The notes: generated from the sequence alone by a model not told the origin. A stretch of 44,084 nucleotides of DNA from Succinivibrio sp. (GCA_963632005.1 CAVGTL010000001.1:1-44084), one strand, 5' to 3'. Positions 11,027 through 38,910 are shown, numbered from the stretch's first letter. Translations and numbers: made by a program.

Positions 11027-12188
11027 CTGTTTCCTCCCCCGTTATGTCTCTATCCTCTGATGCGCTGTAATCCTCAGGGTAGCTGCCCTCTATCTTGCCT
11101 GCTGCCGGATATATCATCACCTGATGAGTCTTTCCATTTGTTCTTATAAACATCCAGCGTTCAAGTTCCTCTTTTACATCATTTACAAATTCACCATCGG
11201 GCAGTTCTCTGTAATTTTTTGTAAATCCCGAGCTGTATTTTTCCCTGATCTCTCTTATCATGTTGTCAAATTCAATAACATCAACACTGCATGTATCGTC
11301 AGCTGCAGTCTTCCAGACGCCGCTTTCCATACGCTGCCTTATTTCAGCGCAGCACATAAGTAATATGTCAGAAATAACATTATTTCCCGGGAATACCTCT
11401 CCCATATGGCATCCGTCACCGGATATAAGAAAGGCGCTTCCCCTGTGTATATTGACCCTGCAGTCAAACATGCGCTCCAGATTTTCCCTGAGATTATTTC
11501 CCTGATTCTTCAGATACTCAAAATCTTCGGGTGAACCGTCTGCGCGGTACATCCCCGGTGCAAACAGCAGCCTTTTATAAACACGCTGCCTGCGCGCTAT
11601 ACCTCTGTCCTCATCTATTTCGAACCATTCGCTCCTGCTGAAATCCTCAGGACGCGAAAATGACATAATATCATTTGAAAAATTACGCATAAAATACCTT
11701 GAGACACCTGTATTTTCATAAAGCACCTCACCTGTGAGATCATCTATAAAATCATCATCACGTCCGTCCGTCACTGCGATGATACCCTGCTTTACTGCAT
11801 AGCGCAGTACCTTTATAAGATAACGCCTGTTTTTGTAAAATGTCCAGTCGACCGGTTCCGACGGCATATTAGATGCTATATATTCTGTGAGCTGTGAAAG
11901 TATAAACTGCTCCTGAGCATCCTTGTCCTCAAGAAACATCAGCAGCACGCACAGATAAGCATATTCCTGATTCGTTGTAAAATCCCTTATTCCCATAAAG
12001 CTCTCAGGAATAGCAGGTATCTTTTCCATTTTTACGAGCATTGGATTTTCCATAATATAACATCCAAGCTTTTCAGATGAAAATTTTTTTATTTCGCCGA
12101 GCGCATCCCTTACTCGATAATACAGCTCCTTATCAGTCGACTTCAGTATCCATCGCCTGTTCAGGAGCAGTTCAAGTTCTTTTATCAT
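11001..12188 (-). CDS. jetB: Wadjet JetB-like subunit (DUF2398/TIGR02678-like)
   Basis: 395 aa, second gene of the operon. Its ATG overlaps the jetA TGA (ATGA at 12185-12188) and its 3' end overlaps jetC by 26 nt. The assignment rests on position, size and operon context, not on motifs. Confidence 0.7.
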   Translation of the reverse strand: MIKELELLLNRRWILKSTDKELYYRVRDALGEIKKFSSEKLGCYIMENPMLVKMEKIPAIPESFMGIRDFTTNQEYAYLCVLLMFLEDKDAQEQFILSQLTEYIASNMPSEPVDWTFYKNRRYLIKVLRYAVKQGIIAVTDGRDDDFIDDLTGEVLYENTGVSRYFMRNFSNDIMSFSRPEDFSRSEWFEIDEDRGIARRQRVYKRLLFAPGMYRADGSPEDFEYLKNQGNNLRENLERMFDCRVNIHRGSAFLISGDGCHMGEVFPGNNVISDILLMCCAEIRQRMESGVWKTAADDTCSVDVIEFDNMIREIREKYSSGFTKNYRELPDGEFVNDVKEELERWMFIRTNGKTHQVMIYPAAGKIEGSYPEDYSASEDRDITGEETDEQQMAGE

Positions 12189-13726
12189 ATTCCTTTATTT
12201 TCCTCCTGAAAAACTATTTCAAATTCAGGCATGGTAAAATTACCGTCTGTGCAGTGGACTACACATTTTTTATTCCTGTCCTCGCAAATGAGCTTATACG
12301 GTCTTCCGTTTTCCGTTTTGGCTGCCAGGTCAGCCGTCTCGAGTGCATCTGAAAGCCATTTCAGCAGTATTTCTCTTATATCCGGCTCTATTACAGGAAG
12401 CTTTGAAAATTCTATACGTCCGTCCTTTTCAAGTGCCGAGACCTTATCCATATCTTTTTTCTGCTTTTCAAGCATCCTGCGTCTGACTTCACGCTTCTTT
12501 TCGGTAGATGCAGTTATAGCGCTCCGCTTTGCTTTTTCTTTGTATGTTCGCACTCGCGGCTTGATAACGAGAGACATCGGCTTTTCATCATATACACTGC
12601 AGTTCATGCTGTCCGTTTCTCTTTCAGGGTCGCCTTCCAGATGATACGGCCTCTCTATGCCAAATACCATGGCTGACATTCTATGCGCTTCATTTATATC
12701 GCTGCATCTGAGAAATATTTCCGCAACTTTTCTGTATTCTTCGCGTCTGTTCGCTCCGAGAGCATTCTTTTCGCTCAGCTGAACGGCATAACGTGTTATT
12801 TTCCTTATTATGTCATTTGTAGCATCAAACAGTCTGGCTGCTTCATTCTCGCGTCCGTCCTGTGCTACGAACCATTCGTATATACTCATGTAACGCCCGC
12901 GCACTCTGTTCTCTATGAGCTCACGTGATATTGCGGCATCCATCCTCGGTATCTGAAGCTCGTGCTCCGTAATTTTTTCTATAATACGCTCGCGCATATC
13001 AGCATCTATGCGTTTAAGCTCTTCTTCTATAACTCCTACATTACGCTGCAGGCTCTTTATGAAATTACGCAGATAATCTGTCAGATGATCCTTGAATACC
13101 ATAAACGCCTTCGTACGCATCATCTCTTCAGCCTTTACGCTGTTAAGGTCGCGCATATAGTCCTGGTAATTCTGGTTCAAGCTCATAAAATCTTTATTAA
13201 GATCATTCCACAGAGAGTATGCCTCATCATCATTCATACCATCGATCTCAGCCAGCTTGCCTGCATTCAGACGTATACGTTCAAGCAGAGTCGGTTCAAG
13301 CGACGCACCTTCTATGAAAAGGTTTTCCAGCCTGAGTACAAGACGCTCTATCTCTACACTGTACTCCGACATCTGATATCTGAATTTCTTATTCTTAAAT
13401 TCTTCTATCGACGATACCCTTCTCGTATCCTGCATTGCATCCAGATTTTTCCATTCAGTCAGCATTGCAAGATCCTGCTGACACTGCTCCGGCCTGTAAT
13501 CCTTAAAATACGGATCCTTTATCATCTCATCGTAAACTTCTTCCTGATACATCCAGTAGTGAAGTCTCTCGTAATTTTCAAAAAATATCCGCATTATACA
13601 GCGATACCTGTCAGCATTTTCTGCATTCAGGTATTTAGCTTCCGTCAGTGGCTTTAAAAGCTTTTCTGTTACTCTCAAATACCCTTTCCCCCATAATTTA
13701 GAATTTTTAGATTTCTTAAATCTCAC
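12185..13726 (-). CDS. jetA: Wadjet JetA-like subunit (DUF2397/TIGR02677-like)
   Basis: 513-aa ORF, first gene of the operon. The true start may be the TTG at 13678, preceded by GGGGGAAAGGG, because the putative -10 element lies only about 13 nt upstream of the 13726 ATG. The assignment rests on position, size and context. Confidence 0.7.
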   Translation of the reverse strand: MRFKKSKNSKLWGKGYLRVTEKLLKPLTEAKYLNAENADRYRCIMRIFFENYERLHYWMYQEEVYDEMIKDPYFKDYRPEQCQQDLAMLTEWKNLDAMQDTRRVSSIEEFKNKKFRYQMSEYSVEIERLVLRLENLFIEGASLEPTLLERIRLNAGKLAEIDGMNDDEAYSLWNDLNKDFMSLNQNYQDYMRDLNSVKAEEMMRTKAFMVFKDHLTDYLRNFIKSLQRNVGVIEEELKRIDADMRERIIEKITEHELQIPRMDAAISRELIENRVRGRYMSIYEWFVAQDGRENEAARLFDATNDIIRKITRYAVQLSEKNALGANRREEYRKVAEIFLRCSDINEAHRMSAMVFGIERPYHLEGDPERETDSMNCSVYDEKPMSLVIKPRVRTYKEKAKRSAITASTEKKREVRRRMLEKQKKDMDKVSALEKDGRIEFSKLPVIEPDIREILLKWLSDALETADLAAKTENGRPYKLICEDRNKKCVVHCTDGNFTMPEFEIVFQEENKGI

Positions 13727-16616: not shown

Positions 16617-17975
16617 ATGCTGTTTAAACGAAAAATATACGATAAATTCCTCGCATGGAAAAACAACGCCAACGGCAAAAAAGCCCTGCTCGTAGAGGGT
16701 GCGCGCCGCATCGGAAAATCTACAATAGTGGAAAATTTCGCCCAAAATGAATACAAAAGCTATATACTCATAGACTTTGCAATAGCGTCAGAAAATATAA
16801 AACAATATTTCAATCTGTATCTCAACGATCTCGATACATTCTTTATGCTGCTTTCAATACAATACGGAGTTCAACTGTACCCACGCGAAAGCGTTATCAT
16901 TTTTGACGAGGTCCAGCTGTTTCCAAAGGCACGCGAAGCAATCAAATATCTCGTTGCAGACGGCAGATATGACTTTATTGAGACAGGCTCTCTCATATCC
17001 ATAAAAGAAAACGTACAGAATATAGTTATCCCTTCCGAAGAACGACAGATAAAAATGTACCCTATGGATTTTGAGGAATTCTGCTGGGCGCTCAACGAAG
17101 CTCCCCTCATCGCATATATCCGCGATTGCTTTGATAAAAAAATACCGTTGGAGCGCGGCATCCACGAAAAAGCCATGCTCCTTTTCAAACAGTATATTTT
17201 AATCGGCGGCATGCCTATGAGTACTGCCGCGTTTTTGGAAAATCACAGGGATTTTGGCAGAGCCGATCTGGAAAAACGGGATATCCTCTCACTCTACAGA
17301 AATGACATCATGAAGATAAATGCACAGTATCGTTCAAAAGTCATGACGATATTCGACCAGATCCCCGGTCTGCTGTCGCGCCATGAAAAAAGAGTCGTCT
17401 TCAACCGCATAGACAAGGGCTCTTCAGCCGAACAATATGAAGAAACATTTTTCTGGCTCTCAAACTCAATGATAACAAACGAGTGCAGACGCGCAAATGA
17501 CCCAAACGTCGGACTTTCGCTGAACGAATCTGACACGTATATAAAATGCTATATGGGTGACACCGGCCTGCTCGTCAGCCATGCCTTTGATGAAAACGAG
17601 CTGCTTGAGGACGAAGTCTACAAACAGATAATCAACGGCAAGCTAGGCCTTAATGAAGGAATGCTCTACGAAAACGCAATAGCGCAGATGCTGACCGCCA
17701 ACGGCCACCGCCTTTTCTTCTACACACACTACAACGCAGAAAAAAAACGCAATGACATAGAGATAGACTTCATAATATCAAACAACAGCAAACTCCAATA
17801 CAAAATATACCCTATAGAGGTAAAATCAGGCATAAAATACTCAACAACATCGCTCCTGCGCTTCAAAGAAAAATACAACGACCGCATCGGCTGCTGCTAC
17901 ATCATCCATCCTAAGAACCTGTCAATAAAAGACGACATCATCTGCATCCCGCCGTATATGACTATATGCCTTTAG
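16617..17975 (+). CDS. AAA-family ATPase of the COG1373 type (AAA_14 + DUF4143-like)
   Basis: Walker A GARRIGKST and Walker B IIFDEVQ. The size and C-terminal pattern are typical of DUF4143 proteins as I recall them. AAGGAGG RBS present. Confidence 0.75.
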   Translation: MLFKRKIYDKFLAWKNNANGKKALLVEGARRIGKSTIVENFAQNEYKSYILIDFAIASENIKQYFNLYLNDLDTFFMLLSIQYGVQLYPRESVIIFDEVQLFPKAREAIKYLVADGRYDFIETGSLISIKENVQNIVIPSEERQIKMYPMDFEEFCWALNEAPLIAYIRDCFDKKIPLERGIHEKAMLLFKQYILIGGMPMSTAAFLENHRDFGRADLEKRDILSLYRNDIMKINAQYRSKVMTIFDQIPGLLSRHEKRVVFNRIDKGSSAEQYEETFFWLSNSMITNECRRANDPNVGLSLNESDTYIKCYMGDTGLLVSHAFDENELLEDEVYKQIINGKLGLNEGMLYENAIAQMLTANGHRLFFYTHYNAEKKRNDIEIDFIISNNSKLQYKIYPIEVKSGIKYSTTSLLRFKEKYNDRIGCCYIIHPKNLSIKDDIICIPPYMTICL

Positions 17976-17990
17976 GTGCAGAATATAAAA

Positions 17991-18030
17991 CTTCCCGGAC
18001 AGCCATCATGCCATCCGGGAAGTTTATTTT
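17991..18030. terminator. bidirectional terminator (left copy of the island-flanking repeat)
   Basis: Hairpin CTTCCCGGA / TCCGGGAAG followed by TTTATTTT, with an A-run upstream. Confidence 0.75.
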
Positions 18031-18046
18031 ATCTATTGATATTCAT

Positions 18047-18490
18047 CTAATCCAACAAATACCCTGCCTCATAAGAGCACTCAAGATAACTTGGATTTTC
18101 ACAGTACAGCCCTGTTCTGAAATCTGATATCTCATCGCTTATAAACGAATTGAACAACTTTAAAGCCTCGTTTACCTCATCCCCTGCTACTGCACAGTCG
18201 ATTATCATATCACAATACAACTTGCCTATCGCCGTATATGACGGGATCCTTTCACGGCAGCCCGTTATCGTATCAAAATCACCGTCATTTATACCGTACT
18301 CTTCTATAACTTCATCAGATACCTGCTCAAATGAAAGGCAATGATTAACTGCAGCATCCTGAAGCTGATCCTCTATCCCCCGCGCGCCCAGCGCGCCCAC
18401 GACCGCTCCGCGTCTGTTCTTCGTAACACGTCCTATATACTCGATAAGCGAGCACACATAAAACAGATCATTCCTTCTTTCCGCTGTCAT
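18047..18490 (-). CDS. DUF3791-like protein
   Basis: 147 aa. The N-terminal LFYVCSLIEYIGRVTKNRR pattern matches my recollection of DUF3791. GAGGTG RBS lies inside the upstream gene, with a 23-nt overlap. Confidence 0.6.
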   Translation of the reverse strand: MTAERRNDLFYVCSLIEYIGRVTKNRRGAVVGALGARGIEDQLQDAAVNHCLSFEQVSDEVIEEYGINDGDFDTITGCRERIPSYTAIGKLYCDMIIDCAVAGDEVNEALKLFNSFISDEISDFRTGLYCENPSYLECSYEAGYLLD

Positions 18491-18923
18491 AATATACCAC
18501 CTCGCTCTTTATGAATTTCAGACATTTTAAAGCTGCCAGCGTGTGAAAACTTATCTGATGTGTTGGATATTTAAACCTTGCTAATGCCCAAAATTGTTCC
18601 TTGCTGAGATCAAAATTCCACACGGTATCATCCGCCATAGGTCCTTCAACAATATCATACTTATGCAGATCACCTCTGCGGCATTTAGCTATAAAATCAA
18701 GCCACTCATCAGTCATCTCATCAAACTTCAGCATAGCTAATTTTTCATCCGGTGTATATTCATAATAATTTATTATCGGCGTTCCTTTTCCTCTGTTTGC
18801 CCAACGCACCGCCTGTTGGAAATTCAACGTACAATAAAACCCCCACGAAAAATCCTTCGTATATTTAGCCATCCTTATCTCAGGATACTCAACGATTTCT
18901 TTACTTGCATGATATAAGATCAA
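18468..18923 (-). CDS. DUF3990-like protein
   Basis: 151 aa. MILYHAS ... GFYCT ... VEGPMADD matches the DUF3990 N-terminal pattern as I recall it. TTG start at 18923 with AGGAG 10 nt upstream. Confidence 0.6.
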   Translation of the reverse strand: MILYHASKEIVEYPEIRMAKYTKDFSWGFYCTLNFQQAVRWANRGKGTPIINYYEYTPDEKLAMLKFDEMTDEWLDFIAKCRRGDLHKYDIVEGPMADDTVWNFDLSKEQFWALARFKYPTHQISFHTLAALKCLKFIKSEVVYYDSGKKE

Positions 18924-19030
18924 TAGTTATATACTCCTGTCATATTTAAACTTTACGATAGCCTGCACATATATGATTTAATTATACCCTTATTTATGAA
19001 TCTGAAAAAGATATTTTAATATTACCAAAT

Positions 19031-19067
19031 ATAATCAAAACAGCCCGGGCATTCTAATGTCCGGGCT
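19031..19067 (-). terminator. terminator of the SPFH operon
   Basis: Hairpin AGCCCGG / CCGGGCT spans 19042-19067, followed on the minus strand by GTTTTGATT. Confidence 0.6.
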
Positions 19068-19149
19068 ATCTACCTCACAGAACGCACATACTCCCATTAT
19101 GAGAGTATAGAAATGCACCCTTTGTTCCAAAAGGATTTAGTGCCTAACA

Positions 19150-19476
19150 TTACCTCCAACCAAGCCGATCAAGTAATTGGTTTAGTTCTTTGATATACCT
19201 TTTGGCCGTGATATGATCCAAATTTGGATTTGGCACATATTTTTCAATATCAGACGTACGATATTCGTATTCCGGGTGCCAAAAAGCTTCACAAATCTTC
19301 CAGATTCGATTTTCATCCTCGTTACAAGTTTTCGTACATATTAAACGGTACTTTTCATTGTTCTCTGGAGAGTATATGCGTTTTAATATACTGCGAAACT
19401 CGTTTGTTGTATTCCAGTCCATATCTGCAAACCCATCTTTAGCGCTCTTTTGTAAGTTCCTCATCAATTTCCGCAA
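19150..19476 (-). CDS. small hypothetical protein, fourth gene of the SPFH operon
   Basis: 108-aa ORF between the zinc-ribbon gene and the operon terminator. Position 19476 is a TTG, and alternative ATG starts lie at 19464 and 19422. I recognise no family motif. Confidence 0.5.
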   Translation of the reverse strand: MRKLMRNLQKSAKDGFADMDWNTTNEFRSILKRIYSPENNEKYRLICTKTCNEDENRIWKICEAFWHPEYEYRTSDIEKYVPNPNLDHITAKRYIKELNQLLDRLGWR

Positions 19477-20536
19477 TTCTCACATTAGCAGCATCAATCT
19501 GTACCTGAATAGGCGAAACAACATCTTCTCTACTTGCTTTTGCTTTCTCTAAATCGTCAGATGCAAGCTTATCGATTCGCTCTTGAAGTGCCTTCTTTTC
19601 CTTTCCCTTGAAAAGACCCAACGCAGATTTTTCTTGCTGTAACGCTTGAATCTTCGCTTCAATTTGTTCTTCTGCTTTTACCTCAGGCAAAGATGAAATC
19701 TCGGCGTTCAAGTTTTCAACTTTTGCTGATAAAGCTTCCCGCTCTTGGTCAAGGGCTGCTTTTTCCTCAGTATGCTCAGACCAATAAGCAGAAATTGCTT
19801 TAGCTTTTAATGCTTCAAGCTCTCTTTTTTCTTCGTCAATCCACCCTTGCAAAAAGTCCTTTTTCCAGTAATCGGTCGCCATGGCTACTGTATAAAATGC
19901 AATCGCGGCCGCATGTAAATACGGCTGGTCATCAATCTTCTGGATATTGTCCATTGTTTCTTTGAACGCATCCAAAAGACCAGAAAACATCTGTATTGTT
20001 TCGCCTTTGTTGGTTCGCGTGACCACTCCATAGCCGTTTTTCCATTCAGTAAAAACAAAATTGCTACACACCATTTTTCCGAGATCAATTCCCATCGAAA
20101 TGATAGCCTGCTTATTCTCTTCTCTGCGTTCAGGTTTGTAGTGATCATCAACAACAGAAATACAATTCTTTAGGACTTTGAAAGTCGCAGCTCTCTTGTA
20201 AACATCACCATCTGTCAAAGAAGCCTTTGCTTTTCCATAGGAGCTGTAAAAGATAGCTTCAATATTATCGGGGTCATTTTGCTCGACCATATTGTAGTAT
20301 TTTTCAGTTTCCTCCCAGTCTTCCTTTTCTTTTGCACGTCGAGCATTGGCAAGATACTTTTCGACAAAAGCGCTGTTATCCACTTTAACAGTACCCTGAA
20401 CATCAACAGTACCTTCAATCATCATTTTCTTAGCCTCTTCTATGGAATACTTACATCCACAACTTTGGCATACAAACACACCACCATCTTTAATTAGATC
20501 CGTGCTACCACACATTTCACAAGTTAACTGTTTCAT
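19439..20536 (-). CDS. zinc-ribbon protein with TPR-like helical region and C-terminal coiled coil
   Basis: N-terminal CEMCGSTDLIKDGGVFVCQSCGCKY is a CxxC...CxxC ribbon. It is followed by an EKYLANARRAKEKEDWEETEKYYNMVEQNDPDNIEA TPR-like repeat. The last roughly 120 aa are heptad-rich (EALKAKA..., LQQEKSAL...). AGGAGG RBS present. Confidence 0.75.
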   Translation of the reverse strand: MKQLTCEMCGSTDLIKDGGVFVCQSCGCKYSIEEAKKMMIEGTVDVQGTVKVDNSAFVEKYLANARRAKEKEDWEETEKYYNMVEQNDPDNIEAIFYSSYGKAKASLTDGDVYKRAATFKVLKNCISVVDDHYKPERREENKQAIISMGIDLGKMVCSNFVFTEWKNGYGVVTRTNKGETIQMFSGLLDAFKETMDNIQKIDDQPYLHAAAIAFYTVAMATDYWKKDFLQGWIDEEKRELEALKAKAISAYWSEHTEEKAALDQEREALSAKVENLNAEISSLPEVKAEEQIEAKIQALQQEKSALGLFKGKEKKALQERIDKLASDDLEKAKASREDVVSPIQVQIDAANVRIAEIDEELTKER

Positions 20537-20552
20537 TTTTCATTCCTCCTAC

Positions 20553-21221
20553 TTACTTCAGAATTTTAATTTTTCTGTTACGCTCATCCAAAAGCAAACT
20601 GATTTCATTAATAATCTTCATCATACTAATGCCTTTTTTCAATTCAGCAGCTTTCTCTATAATCTGTTTTTCCAAATCTGTCAGTCGCTCATCACTTACA
20701 GGATCAGAAAAGCGTACCTTTTCTGCAAGCTGCATTAGTGCCGATTTTATTACTATATCAGTCTCAGAGTTGGCCAATACTTCGATTTCAACTTGCAACT
20801 GTTTAACAAAAAAGACTTTTCCTTGAACCTTTGCAGATACCCTTTCAATTTCATTACGTCCTACACTTGAACAAATCATACAAAACGCAGATACACCTGC
20901 AACCGCTGCACAGATAATAACTGCAGCCCAAACAGGAAGTGTTTGAAAAGATTGAAATATTATAAGTAAAATGATTTGAATTACGAGATATATAATACCA
21001 ATATTAACGATTGGGAATCCCATGAATTTACTTTTCAATGCTTCATCGCTCCTAAAAGCTACTTTCCAAATGATTATCTGAGCAGCAAATGCAATTACTG
21101 TAAATGCATAAGAAACCCAAAAGGCTGCGTTTTTTACCGACGGAACAGCAATAGAAATTATAGTTATTAACACAAACATAATGCCAAGAATAACATAGCC
21201 TTTTGTTCGATTATTTTTCAT
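20553..21221 (-). CDS. integral membrane protein (about 4 TM helices) with a cytoplasmic helical C-terminal domain
   Basis: Four hydrophobic segments are followed by an amphipathic helical tail (ALMQLAEKVRFSDPVSDERLTDLEKQI). I moved the start to the ATG at 21221 because GGGAGG lies 7 nt upstream, 2 nt after the SPFH stop. Confidence 0.7.
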   Translation of the reverse strand: MKNNRTKGYVILGIMFVLITIISIAVPSVKNAAFWVSYAFTVIAFAAQIIIWKVAFRSDEALKSKFMGFPIVNIGIIYLVIQIILLIIFQSFQTLPVWAAVIICAAVAGVSAFCMICSSVGRNEIERVSAKVQGKVFFVKQLQVEIEVLANSETDIVIKSALMQLAEKVRFSDPVSDERLTDLEKQIIEKAAELKKGISMMKIINEISLLLDERNRKIKILK

Positions 21222-21223
21222 TA

Positions 21224-22396
21224 CTAATCCTCCCGCCTTGTCCCACATTTAGGACAAAACTTACCAGGTTTGATAAATTTGAACCCACATCTAATACAAA
21301 TGTCATGAGTTGCCTGCGATGCGCCGCATTCATCACAGAATAACGCTCCTGGTGTCAGTTCAGCTCCACATTGGTCGCAAAAACGGTTCACCGTTGCCTG
21401 CGGCTGAGTAGTTATTCCTGTAAATGCATCAGATACAGCACCTCCAACCATTCCACCGACTGTTCCACCTATACCAGTCATCATTCCCAGTCCAATACCC
21501 ATACTTGAAAACTGTCCGCTTCCCTCATTTTTCGCTACATCCTGCGCTACATCGAATCCACGCTCCTGTTGATATGTATAACCTTCCTGTATTCGCTTAG
21601 TTGCCTGAGCCTGAGAATCAATTATAACTTTCTGTGCCTCAGTCTGTGCATTGATCACATCAGTCTGCTGTTTCAGCTTTGCCTCTGCAATATCAGCATA
21701 CTGGCGAAAATGCAGTTCCTTAAACTTTTCATACTGCGAGTCGCCATCTGGTTTGACCACAGTAGTTACATAAAAACGCTTCAGCTGTATACCATAATCA
21801 AGAAAATCCGGAATTAACCTCCGCTTGATACCTTCCGAAAAGATTTCAAGACTTTCATCAATTTCAAATATATTGATTGCATTGGCTCGCATTGTCTGAG
21901 CAATATATGTTTTTACCTTCGACATCAGAATGCTACGAAAATATGTCACCAACTGCTGTCGATTTAAAATATGCTCTGTTCCGACCAATTTGACTAATAC
22001 TTTACGGGAATCATCCACGCAAAGTGACATCTCACCACTTGCACCAATGGAAATAGGAAATTTATATGTAGGCTCTACATACTGCACCTTACTATCTGTT
22101 CCCCAACGAATTGCCATTTGTTCAGTCTTATTTATGAAATATATTTCGCAATGAAATGCACTAACGCCTCCCGTCGGTATATTAATCAGATGACGTAGAA
22201 TTGGTATATTCTCCGTTTCCAATGTATGCCGTCCCGGGCCAAACAAATCAAGTGCCTGCCCATTTAAAAAGAGAATTGCTTCCTGTGATTCGTGGACGAT
22301 CAACTGAGATGATGTATTAAAATCCTCACAGGGGTGCTTCCATATGAAGGTACTATTATCACCTTCATATTTGATAACGGAAGCAATTGATGCCAT
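21224..22396 (-). CDS. SPFH/band-7 family protein with C-terminal double zinc ribbon (COG4260 / YdjI-like)
   Basis: The N-terminal pattern VIKYEGDNSTFIWKHP...LIVHESQEAILFLNGQALDLFGPGRHTL is typical of the COG4260 SPFH group. There is a Q/A/K-rich coiled coil, a Gly/Met-rich segment (GIGLGMMTGIGGTVGGMVGG), then CDQCG...CDECG and CIRCG...CPKCG. AAGGAGGG RBS present. Confidence 0.8.
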   Translation of the reverse strand: MASIASVIKYEGDNSTFIWKHPCEDFNTSSQLIVHESQEAILFLNGQALDLFGPGRHTLETENIPILRHLINIPTGGVSAFHCEIYFINKTEQMAIRWGTDSKVQYVEPTYKFPISIGASGEMSLCVDDSRKVLVKLVGTEHILNRQQLVTYFRSILMSKVKTYIAQTMRANAINIFEIDESLEIFSEGIKRRLIPDFLDYGIQLKRFYVTTVVKPDGDSQYEKFKELHFRQYADIAEAKLKQQTDVINAQTEAQKVIIDSQAQATKRIQEGYTYQQERGFDVAQDVAKNEGSGQFSSMGIGLGMMTGIGGTVGGMVGGAVSDAFTGITTQPQATVNRFCDQCGAELTPGALFCDECGASQATHDICIRCGFKFIKPGKFCPKCGTRRED

Positions 22397-22411
22397 AGCT
22401 TAGCCCTCCTT

Positions 22412-22439
22412 CGTTTTTAATAGTGTACTTTTCCAAAAC
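22412..22439. promoter_or_regulatory. candidate serine-recombinase crossover site L (hix-like, core GT)
   Basis: Sequence CGTTTTTAATAGT GT ACTTTTCCAAAAC. Each 13-bp half-site matches site R at 10/13 positions by hand alignment. It lies directly upstream of the SPFH gene RBS. Confidence 0.5.
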
Positions 22440-22546
22440 CATATTTTATAATATGCAGAGCATAATAATTTTTCTAAAATCCATAAAATGATTGAAAATT
22501 ACTACTATAGCATATATACTTTAATTAGATTTATTATCACTGCATT

Positions 22547-22574
22547 AGTTTGTAAAAGTACACTTTTACAAACT
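22547..22574. promoter_or_regulatory. candidate serine-recombinase crossover site R (hix-like, core AC)
   Basis: Sequence AGTTTGTAAAAGT AC ACTTTTACAAACT. The 13-bp arms are perfect inverted repeats around a 2-bp core. It starts 3 nt past the recombinase stop codon. On the minus strand no U-run follows, so it is not a canonical terminator. Confidence 0.55.
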
Positions 22575-22577
22575 ATT

Positions 22578-23276
<699 letters not shown>

Positions 23277-23468
23277 TTATCGCCTTTAGCACGCCGGGTA
23301 CGCATTTTTCGCTGTCTGTTGCACCCTTGTTTCAAATATATTTTCAAGGTATTATTTTATTTTTATTCCATTATATGGTTGACATGATTATTTTCAAATG
23401 TTATTCTTAATTGTAATTTTATTACATATCACAAAAGAGGTACAGTATTTCACAGAAAGGATTAGACT

Positions 23469-24380
23469 ATGACTGAAAAAAACATTTTCTCAGAAGCATA
23501 TACCAACGATATATGCAAGGTATTCGATGATAACATTCATTACAATGCACAGCTGTCCACAAGTACTGACAACGGCGGATTCAAGCGCCTCAGAGATGCA
23601 AACCTGTCGGACAACTTCATGTTCGCCAAGGTAATGAGCGATCCGACTGTCTTAAAAGAATTTCTCCAAATCGTCCTCGGTATCAAGATCCGCCGCATCG
23701 TAATGACGCAGTATGAAAAAACTATATTTCCTGACCCGGCAGCAAAAAGTATTCGTTTGGACGTTTATGCTGATGACAGCCAAAACCGCAAATACAGCGT
23801 TGAAATGCAGGGGTATGTTGAATATAATATAGGCAGGAGGAGCCGTTACTATCAGAGCGTTATCGACATCGATTCACTCTCACGCGGTCAGGGCTACGAA
23901 AAGCTCAGTGATGCATTCGTCATATTTGTATGCACTTACGATCCGTTTGGTGCCGGTATGCAGAAATATGTATTTCAAAAGCGCTGCATCAACGCAGGCA
24001 GTGACATCATGCTTAATGACGGTGTATCTACTGTCATACTGACAGACAACAGCGGCGATTCTGTCATAAACGAGTTTTTCAAGTATCTGAAAAACTCCAC
24101 ATATGAAGAAGCTGAACGCAGCGAAAGTAGGCTCATCAAGCTTATCAATCAAAAGGTAGAAAAAGTACGCTTCGATCCTGCGCTGGAGGTAGAGTATATG
24201 AGATTTCAGGAATTACAACGTGAACAGTTCAATAAAGGTCGCGAACAGGGCATTGCTGAAAAACAGTTAGCTATCATAAAAAACATGTTAAATATGGATA
24301 TGAACGATGATACGATACAGACTGTAACCGGCTGCACCGTAGAATACCTTGCAGCTGTTAAACAAAGTATGGTTAATTAA
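23469..24380 (+). CDS. Rpn family recombination-promoting nuclease / putative PD-(D/E)XK transposase
   Basis: The N-terminal SDNFMFAKVMSDPTVLKEFLQ and RLDVYADD...YSVEMQ nuclease-core pattern is typical of the Rpn/YhgA-like family. Confidence 0.75.
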   Translation: MTEKNIFSEAYTNDICKVFDDNIHYNAQLSTSTDNGGFKRLRDANLSDNFMFAKVMSDPTVLKEFLQIVLGIKIRRIVMTQYEKTIFPDPAAKSIRLDVYADDSQNRKYSVEMQGYVEYNIGRRSRYYQSVIDIDSLSRGQGYEKLSDAFVIFVCTYDPFGAGMQKYVFQKRCINAGSDIMLNDGVSTVILTDNSGDSVINEFFKYLKNSTYEEAERSESRLIKLINQKVEKVRFDPALEVEYMRFQELQREQFNKGREQGIAEKQLAIIKNMLNMDMNDDTIQTVTGCTVEYLAAVKQSMVN

Positions 24381-24487: not shown

Positions 24488-27400
24488 TTAATTTTTTCTG
24501 TTTTTCCTTACACGGAAATAGCCGCCCATGATTATCACAATCATGACAACTGCAAGTGTCAACGCCGCAGCGACCGGATTTTCAGCTATAGTTTTCTGAA
24601 CGAGCTCATACACCTTATCCGGCGAACCTTCTGAAGGAAGCTGTTCCTCGCCATGCTGCTCTTCTCCTGCATTGCTCTGCGAGCTTACCTCTATATCAGA
24701 ACCTGTCTGACCTGCTTCCGCGTCAGCGCCGCCTTCTGCAGACGGTGCAAGTGACACGCCACCGTCAGCAGATCCTGTAGCGTAGCCTGTACCCGATGTT
24801 GAGATAAAGTAATCCTTCTGACCGTCAAGTCCATGTCCGAAGAACTGTCCTATAGACACGCCTCTGTTCAGAAGCTCCTGAAGTATAGGGTAATAGTGCC
24901 TGTCAAAGTTAGCATCGACATACAGGTGATATGTACTGAGTATATTACCTGTGAAATGTATTACCGTATCGTTGCCAAATGCATTTTTGTCGAGCGTAGT
25001 AAGCGTCTCAGGCAGATAAACCTCAGATAAAGCTGTATTTGCGAAAGCATTTTTAGCTATCTGTTTCACGCCTTCTTTAAACAGCACATAACTCATGGAG
25101 CTTGCCCCGTTAAATGCGTTCTCGTATATCCTTTCAAGCGAAGTCTGAGAAAGATCTGCAAACAGCAATGACGTACAGCCCTGAAATGCCCCCGGCATTA
25201 TTATCCTGAGCTTTTTATTGAAATTTACGACTCTCAGCGATGTGCAGCCCTTAAACGCATTCTCATAAATGCCATCAAGTTCTGAAGGTAATTTAACGCT
25301 TACGAGACTCGTATTATCTGCGAACGCATTTTTTTCTATGCTCACTACAGGATATCCTGCCACCTCATCCGGTATCACAAGGTCTGCTGCGGCATTGCTG
25401 TTTGCTGTCAGACACTTAACTCCGGCTTTTGTGCTGAACTCTCCGTTGGTTTCTGAAAAAGACAGCTTATAGTCAAGTCCGCCGTATGAGGCATATACGC
25501 TGCCATTATATGCTCCGTATATGTCCTGACGCGTATTTTCTGTATAGAACTTCATTCCCGCAGGTACCGGATATTTATCTGAAGCTATATATAAACAGTA
25601 CTTTGTATACTTTTCTGCATAAGAGCCTGACGGGCATACAAAGCGCAGAACCCCCATATTGCTGCAGAAAAACGCTCCGTTATCTATGTGCTGTACGCTC
25701 GCCGGGAGTGTGACAGTCTTCAGCGACTCGCATCCGGCAAACGCATTGGCATCTATGGTCTTTATGCCCTCTTTAAAATTAACATCCGTAAGTCCTGTAC
25801 ATCCTGAGAATGCAGCTTTCCCTACAGCTGTTACAGTAGAAGGGATATCGACCGTCTTAAGGCCTGTACAGTTCATAAACGCTCTCACGCCTATCTGAGT
25901 TACGCCCTCCGGTATCGTTATCTTTTCAAGACCGCTGTTTGAAAACGCATCATCACCTATAGTTCTGATGTTTGACGGAACTGTATATTCCTTTATCGCC
26001 TTATTTCCTGTAAACAAACCTTCCGGTATTGATGTCCATGAAGCCGGCATATTTATCGTCTCAAGGCTCGAATTTCCATAAAGTGCCTTTTCTTCCAGCT
26101 TAGTCTCTTTAAGACCTTCAGGCAGCTTCAAAGATATCAGTCCGGCTTCCGAAAGCGATTCTTTTCCTAAAGATGTAATATTATCTGAAAGCGTTAAATT
26201 CAACTTTCCATTGCATCCGGCAAGGAAATAATCAGGTATGCCTGTCCAGTTTTTCGGGATATTTATCTCTTTCAATGAACTGCAATTCACAAAAGTACTC
26301 TTGTTATATACTATTCTCTTAGTATTCTGATTCTTTACATATCCTTCTCTGTCCTTCGATTCTCTTGAAAGCCAGAAGCTGTCAGAGCTGAGTCCTTCCG
26401 CAAGCGTTACATTTTCAAGTCCGCTGCCGTCAAATACGTACGCCTGTATCTGCTGCAGTGATGCAGGAAGCGTCACAGACCTGAGCGACGTACATTTGCT
26501 GAATGCATCTGAGCACAGTACTTCAAGCTTTTCCGGCAGCTTTACATCACTGAGACTGCTGCACCCGCTGAATGCGAAACTGTGTATCACCTTAACACTG
26601 TCAGGTATCGATGCCTTTTTTACAGAAGTACAGCCGGAGAAGATTCCTTCCGGTATCTCTGTTATTCCATTTGCAAATGAAACATCAACAAGTGATGAGC
26701 AGCCTGCAAACATGTCTGTACCTGCTTCTTCAAGAGCCGATACTTTTACAGATGTCAGCGATGTACAGTCCTCAAATGCACTGCTGCCTATCTTCGTCAC
26801 ACCGCTCGGTACCGAAATATCTTTCAGAGCAGCACAGCCCTTAAACGCAGCCTCGCCTATCGATGTAAGACCGTTTCCGAACGTTACTTTTTCAAGCTTT
26901 TTGCAGTTGTAAAATGCACGCGCTTCTATCGTCTTAACAGAACCCGGGATCACGACTTCTTTTATCGCTGTTTCCGAGAAAGCTCCTGTACCTATAGTCT
27001 CAAGCCCGTACGGAAGCGTTACCGACCTTATAGCGCTGTTTCCGCCAAAGCCGCTCACATAAGAAAGATCCTTACTGTTCTGTAATGATATCTCCTTAAG
27101 CGCAGCGCATCCCTTGAATGCTCCGCTTCCAATGTATTCCAAACTCTTTGGGAGCACGAGCTCATCGACTGAGGAGCATCCTTCAAATGCATTAGCTTCT
27201 ATGCGCTTAACTCCCTCCGGTATTACGATCTTTTCCAGAGTAGTTATTTCACTGAATGCTCCCTGCGGTATACGATCCATACCTGACGAGAGTCTGAGCT
27301 CAGTTACAGGACAGCCTTTGAACGCATTTTTTCCGACTTCTGTCACATTTTCGGGAAGTGTCAGTGTTCCGCTCAACGGACAGTTTGCAAATGCTTCTGC

Positions 27401-28651
27401 GCCTATCTTTGTAAGGCTCGCCGGAAGCTTCATATTATTCGGCAGCGGGCATTCGATGAATGCCTGCTTGCCTATCTCTGTAACACTGTTAGGTAAGACC
27501 ACATCTGACAGCGAATTACAATAGCCGAATGCTCTTTCGGGTATTACCTTAAGATTTTTTGATATACGCACATGCTTAAGCTGCTTGCATGAAAGAAACG
27601 ACATCGTGCCGATTTCAGTGACCGAATCCGGCATATCGACAGCCGTGACTGCCGTGCCGTAAAACGCGCTGTCTCCTATGTATGTCAGTCCGTCAGCCAT
27701 ATTCGACGCAGTAAGCAGCTTGCATCCGTAAAATGCCTTACTCCCTATCCGCGACACTGCCGGTAATGAATCGAGCTCAAGCGCGCTGCATCCCTCAAAC
27801 ATGCTTGCCGGTATTGCCTTGCAGCTCTTCGGCAGCGTTGCTTTTTTCAAAGCTGTACAGCCCTTGAACAGTCCTTCCGCCATGCTGAAGTCAACAGAAT
27901 CGGAAATACTTACAGAATTAAGCGCCTTACAGCCTTCAAAAGCCTCTGCACCTATAGTTTTCAGACCATCAGGCAATACGATACCGGACAGAGCCGTGCA
28001 TGACTGAAACGCCGCCTTACCTATCGAAGTAATGCCTGAAGCCAGCTTTACATTCTTAAGAGCCGTGCATTCGCTGAACGCTGATTCTCCTATCGAGCCG
28101 GCTGAAATGTCAGCGCTTGTCAGTCTGCTGCATTTTCTGAACGCAGCGTCGCCTATTTTTGAAGCATTTACTTTTATCTCAGTCAGGCTGCTGCAGTTAA
28201 AAAATGCTCTTCTGCCGACTGAAACTCCGTTGTTTCTGATCGTAATATTCTTTAATCCTGTACAGCACGAAAAAGCATTAGCACCTATGCTTTCCACGCT
28301 TTCAGAAAGCGTGACTGATGTAATGCCCGCACAATATAAAAAGGCATGATCATTTACAGCCTTGACCGGCATCCCCTTTATGCTTGCAGGAATGCTCATT
28401 GCGCCCTTTGCTGCTTCGCTGCAGCTCATGATAGTCACTGCACCGTTATTTATGTTGTACGTCAGCAGACCGTATTCATCCTGATACATCCCTGCCTTTT
28501 TATTTTCCAGCTTCAGCTCACTGTCGATATCATAATAATATTCTTCTGCGGTAGAAAGTATCGGTATCAATATCAGCAATAAAGCTATCGCTGCGGCAGG
28601 CAATATCGTCAGTAATATAAAACGTATATCTCTTTTTTTACTGTCCTTCAT
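24488..28651 (-). CDS. giant BspA-type leucine-rich-repeat surface protein, N-terminal signal/anchor and C-terminal TM anchor
   Basis: 1387 aa. There are dozens of repeats of about 23-25 aa of the form xAFxxCxxLxxVxLPxxVxxIGxxAF. An N-terminal hydrophobic segment is present. The C-terminus has an acidic/Gly-rich spacer, a TM helix and an RKNRKN tail. AAGGAGGGGG RBS present. Confidence 0.85.
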   Translation of the reverse strand: MKDSKKRDIRFILLTILPAAAIALLLILIPILSTAEEYYYDIDSELKLENKKAGMYQDEYGLLTYNINNGAVTIMSCSEAAKGAMSIPASIKGMPVKAVNDHAFLYCAGITSVTLSESVESIGANAFSCCTGLKNITIRNNGVSVGRRAFFNCSSLTEIKVNASKIGDAAFRKCSRLTSADISAGSIGESAFSECTALKNVKLASGITSIGKAAFQSCTALSGIVLPDGLKTIGAEAFEGCKALNSVSISDSVDFSMAEGLFKGCTALKKATLPKSCKAIPASMFEGCSALELDSLPAVSRIGSKAFYGCKLLTASNMADGLTYIGDSAFYGTAVTAVDMPDSVTEIGTMSFLSCKQLKHVRISKNLKVIPERAFGYCNSLSDVVLPNSVTEIGKQAFIECPLPNNMKLPASLTKIGAEAFANCPLSGTLTLPENVTEVGKNAFKGCPVTELRLSSGMDRIPQGAFSEITTLEKIVIPEGVKRIEANAFEGCSSVDELVLPKSLEYIGSGAFKGCAALKEISLQNSKDLSYVSGFGGNSAIRSVTLPYGLETIGTGAFSETAIKEVVIPGSVKTIEARAFYNCKKLEKVTFGNGLTSIGEAAFKGCAALKDISVPSGVTKIGSSAFEDCTSLTSVKVSALEEAGTDMFAGCSSLVDVSFANGITEIPEGIFSGCTSVKKASIPDSVKVIHSFAFSGCSSLSDVKLPEKLEVLCSDAFSKCTSLRSVTLPASLQQIQAYVFDGSGLENVTLAEGLSSDSFWLSRESKDREGYVKNQNTKRIVYNKSTFVNCSSLKEINIPKNWTGIPDYFLAGCNGKLNLTLSDNITSLGKESLSEAGLISLKLPEGLKETKLEEKALYGNSSLETINMPASWTSIPEGLFTGNKAIKEYTVPSNIRTIGDDAFSNSGLEKITIPEGVTQIGVRAFMNCTGLKTVDIPSTVTAVGKAAFSGCTGLTDVNFKEGIKTIDANAFAGCESLKTVTLPASVQHIDNGAFFCSNMGVLRFVCPSGSYAEKYTKYCLYIASDKYPVPAGMKFYTENTRQDIYGAYNGSVYASYGGLDYKLSFSETNGEFSTKAGVKCLTANSNAAADLVIPDEVAGYPVVSIEKNAFADNTSLVSVKLPSELDGIYENAFKGCTSLRVVNFNKKLRIIMPGAFQGCTSLLFADLSQTSLERIYENAFNGASSMSYVLFKEGVKQIAKNAFANTALSEVYLPETLTTLDKNAFGNDTVIHFTGNILSTYHLYVDANFDRHYYPILQELLNRGVSIGQFFGHGLDGQKDYFISTSGTGYATGSADGGVSLAPSAEGGADAEAGQTGSDIEVSSQSNAGEEQHGEEQLPSEGSPDKVYELVQKTIAENPVAAALTLAVVMIVIIMGGYFRVRKNRKN

Positions 28652-28673
28652 GCCCCCTCCTTTTCCGGAGACT

Positions 28674-31600
28674 TTAACGTTTACTCTTGCGATAACGATG
28701 GTACCCGCCTGTTATTACGAGGATCAGCAGGATGATCAGTACAAAAGCTCTGACAAAAGGATTTTCCATGACACTTTCATGTATCACTTCAAATACAGTA
28801 TCATTTTTCTGTTCCTCTTCATCTTCTTTTTCCTGTTCTTCCTCTTCAATATCACCGCTGCTCTCTGGTGCGCTTTCAGCCTCCATCTGTTCTGGAGTCT
28901 GATCCTCTACATCTGTTTCCTTCTGTATCTCTTCAGTCTCCGGAACAGTTATTACAATAGTATCTGCATCAGTCGGATGATCTGAAACTGTCGGTATATT
29001 ATCATCAGTTGACGGTATCGTATCTGTATCGTTATTTTTGCCGCCATTACTTATGTCAGTACCGTTGGCGTCAGGATCTGTGCCCTGGCCACCGTTGCCG
29101 TTTTCATTGCCGTCACCCTTATCGCCATCACCGCTGCCTGAATCTGAGCCGCTGTCACTTGAATCATCTTTTGGCTTTTCTTCTTCTTCTTCGACAAACT
29201 TATAAGTCAGTAATGAATCTATATTTTCATTAAATATGATGTTACCTTCGCTTACTACCTTGTCATTAAGCTTAAGAGAGTCCAGAGTTGACTTTTCGCC
29301 GGCAGTGGCTGTTACAGACACTGTATCACCATAAGGTACATACAGTGTTTCATTCTCGCCCGAAATGCTCCTGTCTCTGAAGCTTACAGTTACCTTGCCG
29401 CCCTTTGAATCTGCATCTGCCTTTACTCTTAAAAGGTAATATGAAGGACTTCCTAATGCCGGATATCCTGCCGACTCATCCTGAGTCCATACATTTCTGT
29501 GAGTAGCTGTACCGCCGTCGAGCCTGTAAGCGATCTCACCGCTTGTAAATGCGCTGCCTGCAGCCCAGCCTGAAGGTATCTGAGAATCGTCTGTGAATGA
29601 ATCCTTATTCCAGCCTGCAGCTCCGTAATAGCAGTTTTCCATACTGCCTGAAGCGCCTGATGCTGCAACTGCCTTAAGCTCATGCAGTTTGTCGCTGTAT
29701 GTCTTTGAGTAGAAATATGAATTTGTAATGCTGCCGCTGTTGCTTCCTGCAATGGCACCAACATTTACGTTTTTACCTTCATTTGAAAGGCCTCCGACAG
29801 CCAGGCTGTCTGTAACTGTACCCGTATTATATCCTACGAGTCCGCCTACATTATTAACAGTCGTATCCGGCTCTTCAGATAGCTTTATCATTATTGCATC
29901 GCCGTCAACTCTGCTTTCGCATTTTTCTATCTTACCGCCCTTATTGTAGCCAACAAGTGCGCCTACGCCGTTTTCTGACTTATAGAACTCTGTGACTTCG
30001 ATCTTTCCTGAGTTTTTGCTTCCTTCTATAACGCCGTTTTCAGAAGCTATCTTTCCTGCAAGTCCGCCTACCGTACCGGCCTTAAAGAGTCCGTTTTCTT
30101 CAGGCGCTATGTTGCCTGAGTTGTTGCAGTTTTTCATTTCTCCGTATAATACGGATGCTATGCCTCCGGCTGTTACACCGTAAGTGAGTGAATTGTCGGA
30201 AGTGTCAACAGCTATATTTCCGGTATTGCTGCAGCCCTCGATATTGAGTGCCTGACCTGCTATACCGCCGACACGCTTTGCTGTGCCTGTCACCTTTATA
30301 TCGCCGGAATTGCTGCTTTCTGTTATCTTGCTGTCAGATGCAGCAAAGCTTGAAATGTAGCCTGCTATACCGCCTGCATATGAGTAATTTGCGGATGTAG
30401 TTGATTCTACTTCAACAGTTCCTGTATTTTCTGCATTTTCTATTATAATAGTCCTGCCGTTGAGCGCATATCCCAGGATACCGCCGATATTGGCGTATAC
30501 TTTCTTTTCGCTCTTTGAAGTATTTTCAGGAACAGATATATTACCTGAATTCTTTGCGCCGGATATAGATATCTGACCTGAGCCATATGATGTATTTCCT
30601 ATAATACCGCCTGTATGACCTGCGCCGAGAGAGCCCTCAGACGCTGCAAGTGTGATATTACCGGTATTTTCGCAGTTCAGTATTTTAAGATCTGTCTCTG
30701 TATTCTGCTGTACATTTGCCACTATACCGCCTGCCTGATATGCAGCAGTAATATTTCCATTATTTATACAGTTTTCTATTATATTTACAGACGGTCCTGT
30801 TACAGTTGCAGCTATACCTCCTGCTATGCTGACTGCGCCTGATCCGCTGCCTACTATATTAATATTGTTTGTACAATCAGCTATCGTTCCGCCTTTTGCC
30901 TCATATACGATACCGCCTATGCGTCCGACAAAATATCCGTCTACCGGATGTATATCGCCTGATGTATTACAGTTTGATATATTTCCTTCATTAGAGTATG
31001 CTATACCGCCTATGCATGTCAGATATTTTCCGCTTTCGCCGGCAGTGTTAAGCTCTACCGTACAATCCTTTATAGTTGCACCTTCATGGTTTGCATAAAC
31101 AAGTCCGCCTGAATATGCAAACTTATCAACTGCATCGATATCGTTTGAGCAGTTTGAGATCAGGCCATAGTTGTCTGCTGCCAGTCCTGCCCAGTGTGCA
31201 GTAGTACCGTCTACATCCGTATCAAGATCAGCTGCCGAAAGCTTCAGATTCTCGACAGTTCCGTCTTTACCGATCGTTCCAAACAGGAGATCAGTGTCAG
31301 CTGATGGATTTTTCATTAATGTTATAGTGTGACCGTCGCCGTCAAAATTACCATTAAATTCCTTTATATAGAATTTACCTGCATTGCTGCCGGAAAGATC
31401 AAGGTCTGTGCTGAGTTTAAAGCTGCGTCCGTCAAATGTCTCACCGCTCTGTGATAATGCTGCTATCTTCTGCAGTGTCTGAATATCATTTATTTCATAC
31501 GGTATAGCGTCATCGCTGTTATCGAGAAGAGTTTCCTTTATATCCCACTGTGCGTAAAGGTTCAGGATACCGTTTTCATAATCGGCTGTAGTGAGCGTCT

Positions 31601-38699: not shown

Positions 38700-38910
38700 T
38701 ATCTTAACCTCCTTTAACGTAACACTACGTAATGTACCATGATATGTCAGTTGCGGCATGAACATGATCTTTAACGTATTGATATGCATTATATTCGGTT
38801 TCAATATTTTTGTAAGTTATATTAATAACACAAATAATCAATATTTTCTTATATTGTTCATTTTATTTGTTTTTAATTTGATCAATACTTGTATATTAAG
38901 TTATTTTACG

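Follow-up and report, generated by a model that had tools for sequence, protein, structure and literature searches.

A YdjI-type SPFH operon with two unannotated partner families and a candidate inversion switch: a probable mobile membrane module

Positions 19150-22396 of a 44,084-nt stretch of Succinivibrio sp. DNA (GCA_963632005.1 CAVGTL010000001.1:1-44084; hereafter the window, meaning the whole stretch) hold four minus-strand open reading frames (ORFs), g1 to g4, which an earlier note made from the sequence alone had singled out as an uncharacterized membrane module. ORF calling in the window found all four genes. After start-codon correction, the spacers measure 2 nt (g1-g2), 16 nt (g2-g3) and 16 nt (g3-g4); the tight packing described in the note, with gaps of 2 and 16 nt, therefore holds, except for an overlap reported between the last two genes, which arose because the longest ORF was taken and gives way to the real gap of 16 nt. 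The terminator that the note placed 3' of the operon is also found: an intrinsic-terminator-like hairpin followed by a U-run (19030-19071, minus strand; RNA folding energy -23 kcal/mol, z = -3.1) closes the transcription unit.

The first gene, g1 (21224-22396, minus strand), encodes a 390-aa SPFH protein of the YdjI type, identified by Pfam and BLASTP, that matches the Pfam families Band_7_1 (E = 8.5e-34) and DZR, a double zinc ribbon (E = 5.7e-9); its match to the classical Band_7 family (PF01145) is weak (E = 5e-4) and falls under the cut-off. A helical stretch at residues ~217-290, judged by eye to be a coiled coil, is followed by a Gly/Met-rich patch at residues ~293-335 and then by the eight cysteines of two ribbons (340/343/354/357 and 367/370/381/384), each conserved in at least 96% of 25 species-level homologs, an architecture that bears out the earlier description of an SPFH protein with a coiled coil, a Gly/Met patch and two C-terminal ribbons. 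A hydropathy scan found no transmembrane (TM) segment in g1, and a PDB sequence search returned no useful match. The protein is predicted to be a soluble oligomeric scaffold.

Its downstream neighbor, g2 (20553-21221, minus strand), encodes an integral membrane protein of 222 aa with four TM helices and a helical tail, as delineated from homolog alignments, which place the start most likely at 21221 and not at 21248, and from a hydropathy scan, which detects four TM segments. In an AlphaFold2 (AF2) model the cytoplasmic tail is helical, with a predicted local distance difference test score (pLDDT) of 65 overall and ~83 in the tail, and the cytoplasmic helical bundle carries a conserved R-x-S-D-P-x-S motif; the earlier expectation of about four TM helices plus a helical tail thus agrees with both analyses. 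None of the 930 g2 homologs is annotated, and a Foldseek search with the low-confidence model found no match (E ≥ 1.3). We predict that g2 is a membrane anchor. On plasmid pNP21 of Butyrivibrio fibrisolvens D1 (locus L098), the g2 homolog is split into two tblastn pieces (7883-8646), the second half alone being annotated (145 aa); the split may reflect a frameshift, a pseudogene or a sequencing error.

The third gene, g3 (19439-20536, minus strand), encodes a protein of 365 aa whose AF2 model (pLDDT 89.9), read together with alignments, shows a zinc ribbon at the N terminus, joined by a disordered linker to a TPR-like helical domain that includes a small beta hairpin, and then long C-terminal helices that form a coiled coil. 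The ribbon is of the C4 type, built on the invariant cysteines C6/C9/C23/C26, and the stretch NARRAKEKEDWEETEKYYNMVEQNDPDNIEAIFYS is also very conserved in the alignments; ribbon, TPR-like repeat and C-terminal coiled coil are all as the note had read them. No TM segment is present in the g3 of the window, and a Foldseek search of the model against the PDB gave generic TPR matches alone (E ≥ 8e-3, TM-score ≤ 0.3). The protein is predicted to be a soluble adaptor or sensor.

The arrangement g1-g2-g3 extends far beyond this locus. One genome per GTDB species was scanned with a g3 alignment, yielding 79 loci in which g1 and g2 were then sought by tblastn. These loci come mostly from gut or rumen Clostridia, and also from Olsenella, a Coriobacteriaceae bin, Flexilinea, Gastranaerophilaceae and Bacilli bins; 33 of the 79, in several phyla, keep the order g1-g2-g3. 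Identities to the window proteins are 36-88% for g1, 26-63% for g2 and, over all 79 loci, 46-71% for the g3 N terminus. Among the 32 loci with both g1 and g3, the end of the former and the start of the latter lie 684-720 nt apart in 20, a distance that leaves room for one ~222-aa multi-TM ORF with minimal gaps. The trio is a conserved, tightly packed unit, its arrangement far beyond chance, and the note's concern that the genes might co-occur here by accident can be set aside. Variant loci have a shorter g2 of 141-158 aa or a DUF1413 gene inserted between g2 and g3. A DUF1413 protein of 73-89 aa stands immediately 5' of g3 in five loci, an assignment based on Pfam in L091 (6e-17) and L011 (3e-13), on clustering in L017 and L063, and on position and size only in L073.

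Several observations bear on how the trio has spread. Its g1 is 75-77% identical in Flexilinea and Gastranaerophilaceae bins, a similarity across phyla that points to horizontal transfer. On pNP21, the plasmid of B. fibrisolvens D1 mentioned above, the trio lies near genes that encode ParA, a relaxase and a coupling protein, and also near a serine recombinase gene, a gene for a restriction S subunit and a YoeB/RelB pair. In L091 the element that carries the trio also encodes a MobA relaxase and a large serine recombinase.

The fourth gene does not share this conservation. Homologs of g4 (19150-19422, minus strand) begin at the Met codon at 19422, which defines a small soluble accessory protein of 90 aa, and fall into 16 clusters; tblastn detected g4 in none of the 79 species-level loci. 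Elsewhere, g4 homologs follow g3-like variants (L091/L092 and L095), and in L093 the g4 homolog comes after an unrelated protein. We therefore rejected g4 as a core member: it is absent from all 79 loci and trails only some g3-like variants, and the four-gene unit of the earlier note contracts to a core of g1-g2-g3. The gene is an optional accessory from a rare but real family.

The N-terminal ~200 residues of g3 belong to a large family, with 3531 representatives at E ≤ 1e-3 and 2028 at E ≤ 1e-10 in a search space of 1.84 billion 50%-identity clusters; no Pfam model exists for it. Members of this family end variously in coiled coils, a single TM helix or a pair of them, ankyrin repeats or a Cys-rich domain (GCYVATAVYGSYDCP...), a diversity that had gone unseen in the earlier reading, as had the family itself. 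A C-terminal TM anchor of their own is present in g3-family proteins from 14 of 40 loci that lack g1 and g2, but from only 3 of 30 in which these genes are present (Fisher p = 0.023). The rarity of the anchor in g3 proteins encoded beside g1 and g2 fits a scenario in which these two partners supply the membrane attachment of g3.

Various genes lie directly 3' of g3-family members. TIR proteins do so in L056 (9015-12325) and L059 (5700-7370), two loci with the trio, and another is found in L095 (706-2844); their layout runs from a zinc ribbon through a TPR, TIR_2, EF-Tu domain 2 and a ribosomal L7/L12 C-terminal domain to a C-terminal domain rich in Cys (GCYVATAVYGSYDCP...), and this Cys-rich domain is common to them and to ~305-aa members of the g3 family (hhalign probability 99.95%). 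A ~198-aa protein occupies the same position in L017 (11115-11687), L019 (3014-3610) and L032 (1302-1913); its R-N-x-F-A-H motif resembles the HEPN Rx4H signature by eye only, and the protein has no Pfam match. A ~200-aa multi-TM protein immediately follows g3 in L022, L029, L031, L034 (11057-11650), L051, L080 and L083, with or without g1 and g2, and ends in a SHOCT domain at a score under the Pfam cut-off (E = 3.9e-5).

Upstream of g1, two 25-nt inverted-repeat arms, 88% complementary, bracket a candidate invertible segment. The proximal arm, a candidate crossover site (22413-22437), ends 16 nt 5' of the g1 start codon, and the ribosome-binding site GAAGGAGG lies between arm and ATG, outside the invertible part. 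The segment itself (22438-22548, 111 nt) contains, in a consensus scan, promoter-like hexamers on both strands: TTGAAA-17-TATACT on the plus strand (22492-22520; 10/12 matches), directed away from g1, and TAGAAA-17-TATTAT on the minus strand (22476-22448; 9/12), directed toward it. The distal arm, found by the same repeat search (22549-22573), is a near-perfect palindrome around a central AC, where the proximal arm has GT. Next to it lies a gene for a 222-aa small serine recombinase (22578-23246, minus strand; Pfam Resolvase, 2.5e-30), a candidate invertase whose C terminus has a weak, sub-threshold helix-turn-helix (HTH) match. The candidate switch region that the note placed upstream of the module is therefore present, with its repeats, its segment and its recombinase. 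Two further features surround the recombinase gene: a strong promoter-like sequence, TTGAAA-16-TATAAT (23370-23397, minus strand; 11/12), lies 5' of it, and a perfect 11-nt inverted repeat (23231-23241 / 23370-23380) brackets its start region.

Related loci contain the same arrangement, built with two unrelated recombinases. Homologs of the serine recombinase (52-74% identity) stand directly 5' of g1 in L012, L014, L083 and L091 and 5' of a solo g3 in L053, and the repeat core AAAGGTGTAC / GTACACCTTT is common to the window, L012, L083 and L053, where it flanks 65-127 nt. Both sites of L083 are perfectly palindromic, the central dinucleotide (GT versus AC) being their sole difference, as expected of serine-recombinase crossover sites in inverted orientation. 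In five other trio loci (L020, L029, L059, L065 and L071) a ~280-aa tyrosine recombinase, unrelated to the serine type, lies 5' of g1, and inverted repeats of 20-27 nt (ACATAAT-N5-ATTATGT) enclose 198-241 nt at the same position; the repeats are perfect in four of these loci and 93% complementary in L071, and the proximal arm of L029 lies ~22 nt before the inferred g1 start. Promoter-like sites directed away from g1 include a perfect 12/12 match with a TG extension in L029, a 10/12 match with TG in L059 and a 10/12 match in L020; L071 has a 10/12 site with TG pointing away from g1, but an 11/12 site pointing toward it. That the strongest sites mostly face away from g1 suggests that the reference assemblies mostly show the OFF state, and the orientation seen in the window is probably OFF. 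This anatomy, and the fact that it recurs beside recombinases of two unrelated families, which the earlier reading had not seen, lead us to infer that the segment probably undergoes DNA inversion.

Hin/hix of Salmonella and the RecV-controlled cwpV of Clostridioides difficile are invertible-promoter switches, and DNA-inversion switches usually act on traits with a strong cost-benefit balance, such as surface structures, restriction systems and phage-resistance factors. The present arrangement resembles these invertons in placing a recombinase gene beside short inverted repeats, which surround 65-241 nt just 5' of the regulated gene and enclose promoter-like sites. It differs in that the product is an SPFH scaffold operon acting at the cytoplasmic face and not a surface structure, and in that one orientation alone is seen here, in assemblies.

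The wider surroundings are rich in defense genes. A complete type II Wadjet operon, JetABCD, lies at 5659-13726 on the minus strand, as the note had recognized, its genes matching the PADLOC models JetD2, JetC2, JetB2 and JetA2 with E-values from 7e-122 down to 0. Directly beside the module, the interval 16617-18923 contains three PADLOC candidate defense genes, which encode an AAA_14/DUF4143 ATPase (PDC-S01, 1.5e-101), a DUF3990 protein (PDC-M10A, 2e-79) and an overlapping 147-aa partner (PDC-M10B, 5e-55). The note had called the latter two a DUF3990/DUF3791 pair; the DUF3990 assignment stands, and the partner has no Pfam match, neither to DUF3791 nor to any other family. Pfam also confirms the Rpn nuclease and recombinase named as neighbors, in the form of a PDDEXK_2 (Rpn-like) gene and the serine recombinase. 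The AT-rich island of the note is correct in direction and only mild in degree, with a GC content of 0.37-0.41 in the region versus ~0.44 for the window. The AAA_14/DUF4143 family is also found near g3-family genes in four more loci, of which L018 and L060 have the trio and L017 and L085 a solo g3. Farther away, the minus strand at 24488-38804 encodes two very large ORFs of 1387 and 3376 aa, probably cell-surface proteins; the 1387-aa ORF has many leucine-rich-type repeats and a C-terminal TM anchor, as read from its translation alone.

A tally of three genes on each side of 28 trio loci included recombination and regulatory genes, defense-type genes and also housekeeping genes. The first group has six genes for tyrosine recombinases, five each for TnpV and XRE regulators and two for resolvases, with integrases recurring; defense-type genes comprise three TIR, two Shedu, two AbiL and three AriA-like ATPases, together with PDC-S01 and PDC-S02 proteins. 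Shedu lies directly 3' of g3 in L012/L100, and the L004 trio is flanked by a KAP NTPase and a prophage tail region. The accessory, mobile and defense-rich context proposed in the note is thus borne out by the plasmid, the MobA element and the Wadjet, PDC-S01, PDC-M10, Shedu, TIR and AbiL neighbors. A prophage-borne module was considered and rejected: g3 has no phage match, g1 has one weak match, and a solo g3-like gene is present on only 3 of 2.9 million IMG/VR contigs.

Among the known systems closest to the operon is pspA-ydjGHI of Bacillus subtilis, with which the note had compared it; our reference for that operon was taken from a metagenome contig located by a published primer sequence. 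The likening of g1 to YdjI is well founded, since BLASTP aligns the two with 25% identity over the SPFH domain (E = 3e-15), and both are Band_7_1 proteins with a Gly/Met-rich low-complexity tail, a C-terminal zinc ribbon and no TM segment. Both operons also add a membrane protein, multi-pass or anchored, and a protein that opens with a zinc ribbon. The partners are not related by descent. YdjH is a TPM-domain protein (TPM_phosphatase, 3.1e-23), whereas g2 has no Pfam match above threshold and aligns with YdjH at an hhalign probability of 0.3%; YdjG combines two ribbons with an NTF2-like domain and a TM segment (PMC11237479), whereas g3 combines a single ribbon with a TPR-like domain and a coiled coil, and its residues 3-33 alone, the 31-residue zinc ribbon, align with YdjG (probability 42%). 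Homology of g2 to YdjH and of g3 to YdjG was accordingly rejected, and the earlier parallel in composition holds for g1 as a homolog and for g2 and g3 only as analogs. The gene order differs, as the note had observed when it called it reversed, a comparison that carries little weight because g2 and g3 are not homologous to YdjH and YdjG.

Nor does the locus have a pspA gene, again as the note had stated: tblastn with B. subtilis PspA (E ≤ 0.01) gave no match in the window or in ~95 related loci, and no PspA Pfam match occurs among nine proteins scanned (16617-24380) or the top flank families. The window and the related loci also lack a tblastn match to YdjH or to full-length YdjG, the sole YdjG match being a two-ribbon ORF 5' of g1 in L016 that aligns with YdjG residues 2-86. 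In setting, the two operons differ as well, the module being mobile and located behind a candidate inverton and YdjGHI being a chromosomal stress-regulon (sigma-W) operon. Phage SPP1 induces pspA-ydjGHI, and YdjI copurifies with a cyclase-PspA conjugate of a cyclic-oligonucleotide-based antiphage signaling system (CBASS) (PMC11153139). The operon described here shares one component and a general design with YdjGHI and is not a member of that system.

Two other comparisons place the operon among SPFH systems. Like the flotillin/YqiK operons with NfeD/YqiJ/YuaF and HflK/C with FtsH, it encodes an SPFH scaffold with a dedicated small membrane partner, and the expected general role, organizing or caging membrane clients, is the same; unlike them, g1 matches Band_7_1, with Band_7 sub-threshold, and has no membrane anchor of its own, and Pfam searches reveal no NfeD or protease partner in the operon, g2 and g3 having no NfeD match. 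An operon of Bacteroides finegoldii (L099; NZ_OY725907.1, 59805-63994) encodes, in order, an HTH regulator, a hypothetical protein, YidD, an SPFH protein and proteins of 251 and 192 aa. It parallels the trio in the order of its parts: a Band_7_1-like SPFH protein, 32% identical to g1, comes first, then a multi-TM protein whose tail is helical, then a protein with an N-terminal zinc ribbon. It differs in that hhalign detects no homology for the partners (probabilities of 0.35% and 4.6%) and that an HTH regulator and YidD, instead of a recombinase, lie upstream. The sequence NZ_OY725907.1 is labeled a plasmid yet carries core genes. The SPFH/multi-TM/zinc-ribbon design seems to be old, with fast-evolving partners.

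The cluster cannot be assigned to a known system, in keeping with its description as uncharacterized in the note: PADLOC, NCBIfam and PHROG scans of g1-g4 returned no system or family beyond SPFH and zinc ribbons, and g2, g3 and g4 have no PADLOC, NCBIfam or PHROG family and no Pfam match above threshold. The sole PADLOC match of g3 is LmuB, at the level of the coiled coil (E = 0.087). The operon is likewise undescribed in the literature searched for Band_7_1/COG4260/PF13421, for SPFH in combination with anti-phage, and for SPFH in combination with invertible promoters.

Taken together, we propose, at a probability of roughly 0.55, that the locus is a mobile accessory operon whose three core proteins form a complex at the inner surface of the membrane, probably switched by inversion and probably serving as a conflict or envelope-protection module. 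In this model, g2 would anchor an oligomeric g1 scaffold at the membrane, by analogy with YdjI, which is soluble and needs its membrane partners YdjG and YdjH to reach the membrane (PMC8581546), and g3 would dock on the g1 scaffold as an adaptor or sensor. The Hin-like invertase would flip the 111-nt segment so that its stronger promoter points toward g1 (ON) or away from it (OFF), and g4 would travel as an optional add-on with some g3 variants. Since the operon encodes no enzymatic effector, its output would pass through membrane organization or permeability, or through partners encoded outside it. A conflict-related role is the most likely one in view of the accessory distribution, the switches and the neighbors. 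We tentatively favor defense or exclusion at the membrane against phages or other mobile elements, with phase-variable tolerance to membrane-damaging agents a close second. A more ambitious version, which we put forward as a speculation, is a phase-variable membrane immune or exclusion system in which a g1 SPFH cage stands on the four-TM g2 under the control of g3, the g3 head being a widespread sensor or adaptor, and in which two recombinase families would have been recruited independently to keep a costly system OFF in most cells.

A number of observations weigh against this proposal. As regards the switch, the count of promoter-like sites in the AT-rich segments is at or below that of a shuffled control, and these consensus-scan matches are not in themselves evidence of function. 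The opposite orientation was seen in no comparable assembly (window versus L097; L012 versus L100/L101; related loci), a weak comparison in that assemblies report the majority state alone. Of the 22 trio loci whose upstream sequence is long enough, only 8 have a recombinase next to the operon, and L014, one of the 8, shows no inverted repeat; in four other trio loci a divergent XRE regulator replaces the recombinase. As regards defense, the link to the flanking genes is guilt by association from raw counts; PADLOC-DB v2.0 (2023 models) recognizes none of g1-g4; and the module is almost absent from phage collections. Some trio loci adjoin housekeeping genes (RNA polymerase, EF-Tu), and the B. 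finegoldii analog adjoins obgE, adk and hpt, a housekeeping setting that fits a general envelope role.

This last point leads to the main rival explanation, that the operon is a PspA-type envelope-stress module that would stabilize damaged membrane, a Clostridial counterpart of YdjGHI, with PspA/IM30 encoded elsewhere or not needed and no specific tie to phages or mobile elements. The membership of g1 in the YdjI family with the same tail architecture is what this explanation would predict, as is the housekeeping neighborhood of the Bacteroides trio; YdjGHI is required for PspA foci and affects membrane fluidity (PMC8581546), and band-7 proteins that occur with PspA have been read as chaperone-like assembly factors (PMC11237479). 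We nevertheless consider it unlikely: tblastn finds neither a PspA nor a TPM protein in the window or in related loci, the partners lack homology to YdjG and YdjH, the module has a patchy distribution, occurs on a plasmid and passes between phyla, and the candidate invertons upstream would be unusual for core stress machinery.

A second rival would make the operon cargo that serves its mobile element, through entry exclusion, plasmid or integrative and conjugative element maintenance, or modulation of conjugation, with the recombinases acting as resolvases or integrases. The company of the trio on pNP21 (ParA, relaxase, coupling protein, YoeB/RelB), its place in L091 beside genes for a MobA relaxase and a large serine recombinase, and the recurrence of TnpV and integrase genes in the flanks would all be accommodated. 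The layout of the repeats is harder to reconcile with this explanation, which we regard as improbable: they are inverted, not direct, and flank only 65-241 nt, with the proximal arm a short way from the g1 start (16 nt in the window, ~22 nt in L029), as in a promoter switch and not as in res or att sites, and many trio loci have no recognizable element genes within three genes. Least likely of all, g3 might be mainly a regulator, nucleic-acid-binding or anti-sigma-like, that g1 and g2 hold at the membrane and release on a signal as part of a signaling device, a notion that draws on the divergent XRE-type HTH regulator whose gene lies closest upstream in 4 trio loci and 15 solo loci (HTH clusters occur in 25 loci overall), on weak matches of the zinc ribbon to TFIIB and Rrn7-type ribbon models and on a TPR-like domain suited to partner binding, and that is opposed by the lack of any DNA-binding domain beyond the ribbon and by C-terminal variants (TM anchors, ankyrin repeats, the Cys-rich domain shared with TIR proteins) that look like outputs or anchors.

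SPFH (band-7) proteins occur in all domains of life, and their bacterial roles are poorly defined; to our knowledge, the only YdjI-type protein studied serves the PspA membrane-repair system. The mobile conflict or envelope-protection operon that we propose has at its center a YdjI-type scaffold detached from PspA and paired with two unannotated protein families, spread on plasmids and mobile islands across phyla of gut and rumen bacteria, for which inversion switches appear to have evolved at least twice. One component, the YdjI-type g1, was known, the two partner families are unannotated, and the literature searched contains no SPFH operon with such a regulatory arrangement. If the switch and a phenotype prove true, the operon would be the first phase-variable SPFH module, would offer a tractable handle on the function of YdjI-type scaffolds, and could add a membrane-based defense or tolerance system to the repertoire of gut Firmicutes. 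The presence of the module on pNP21 in a cultured strain, B. fibrisolvens D1, makes the question testable.

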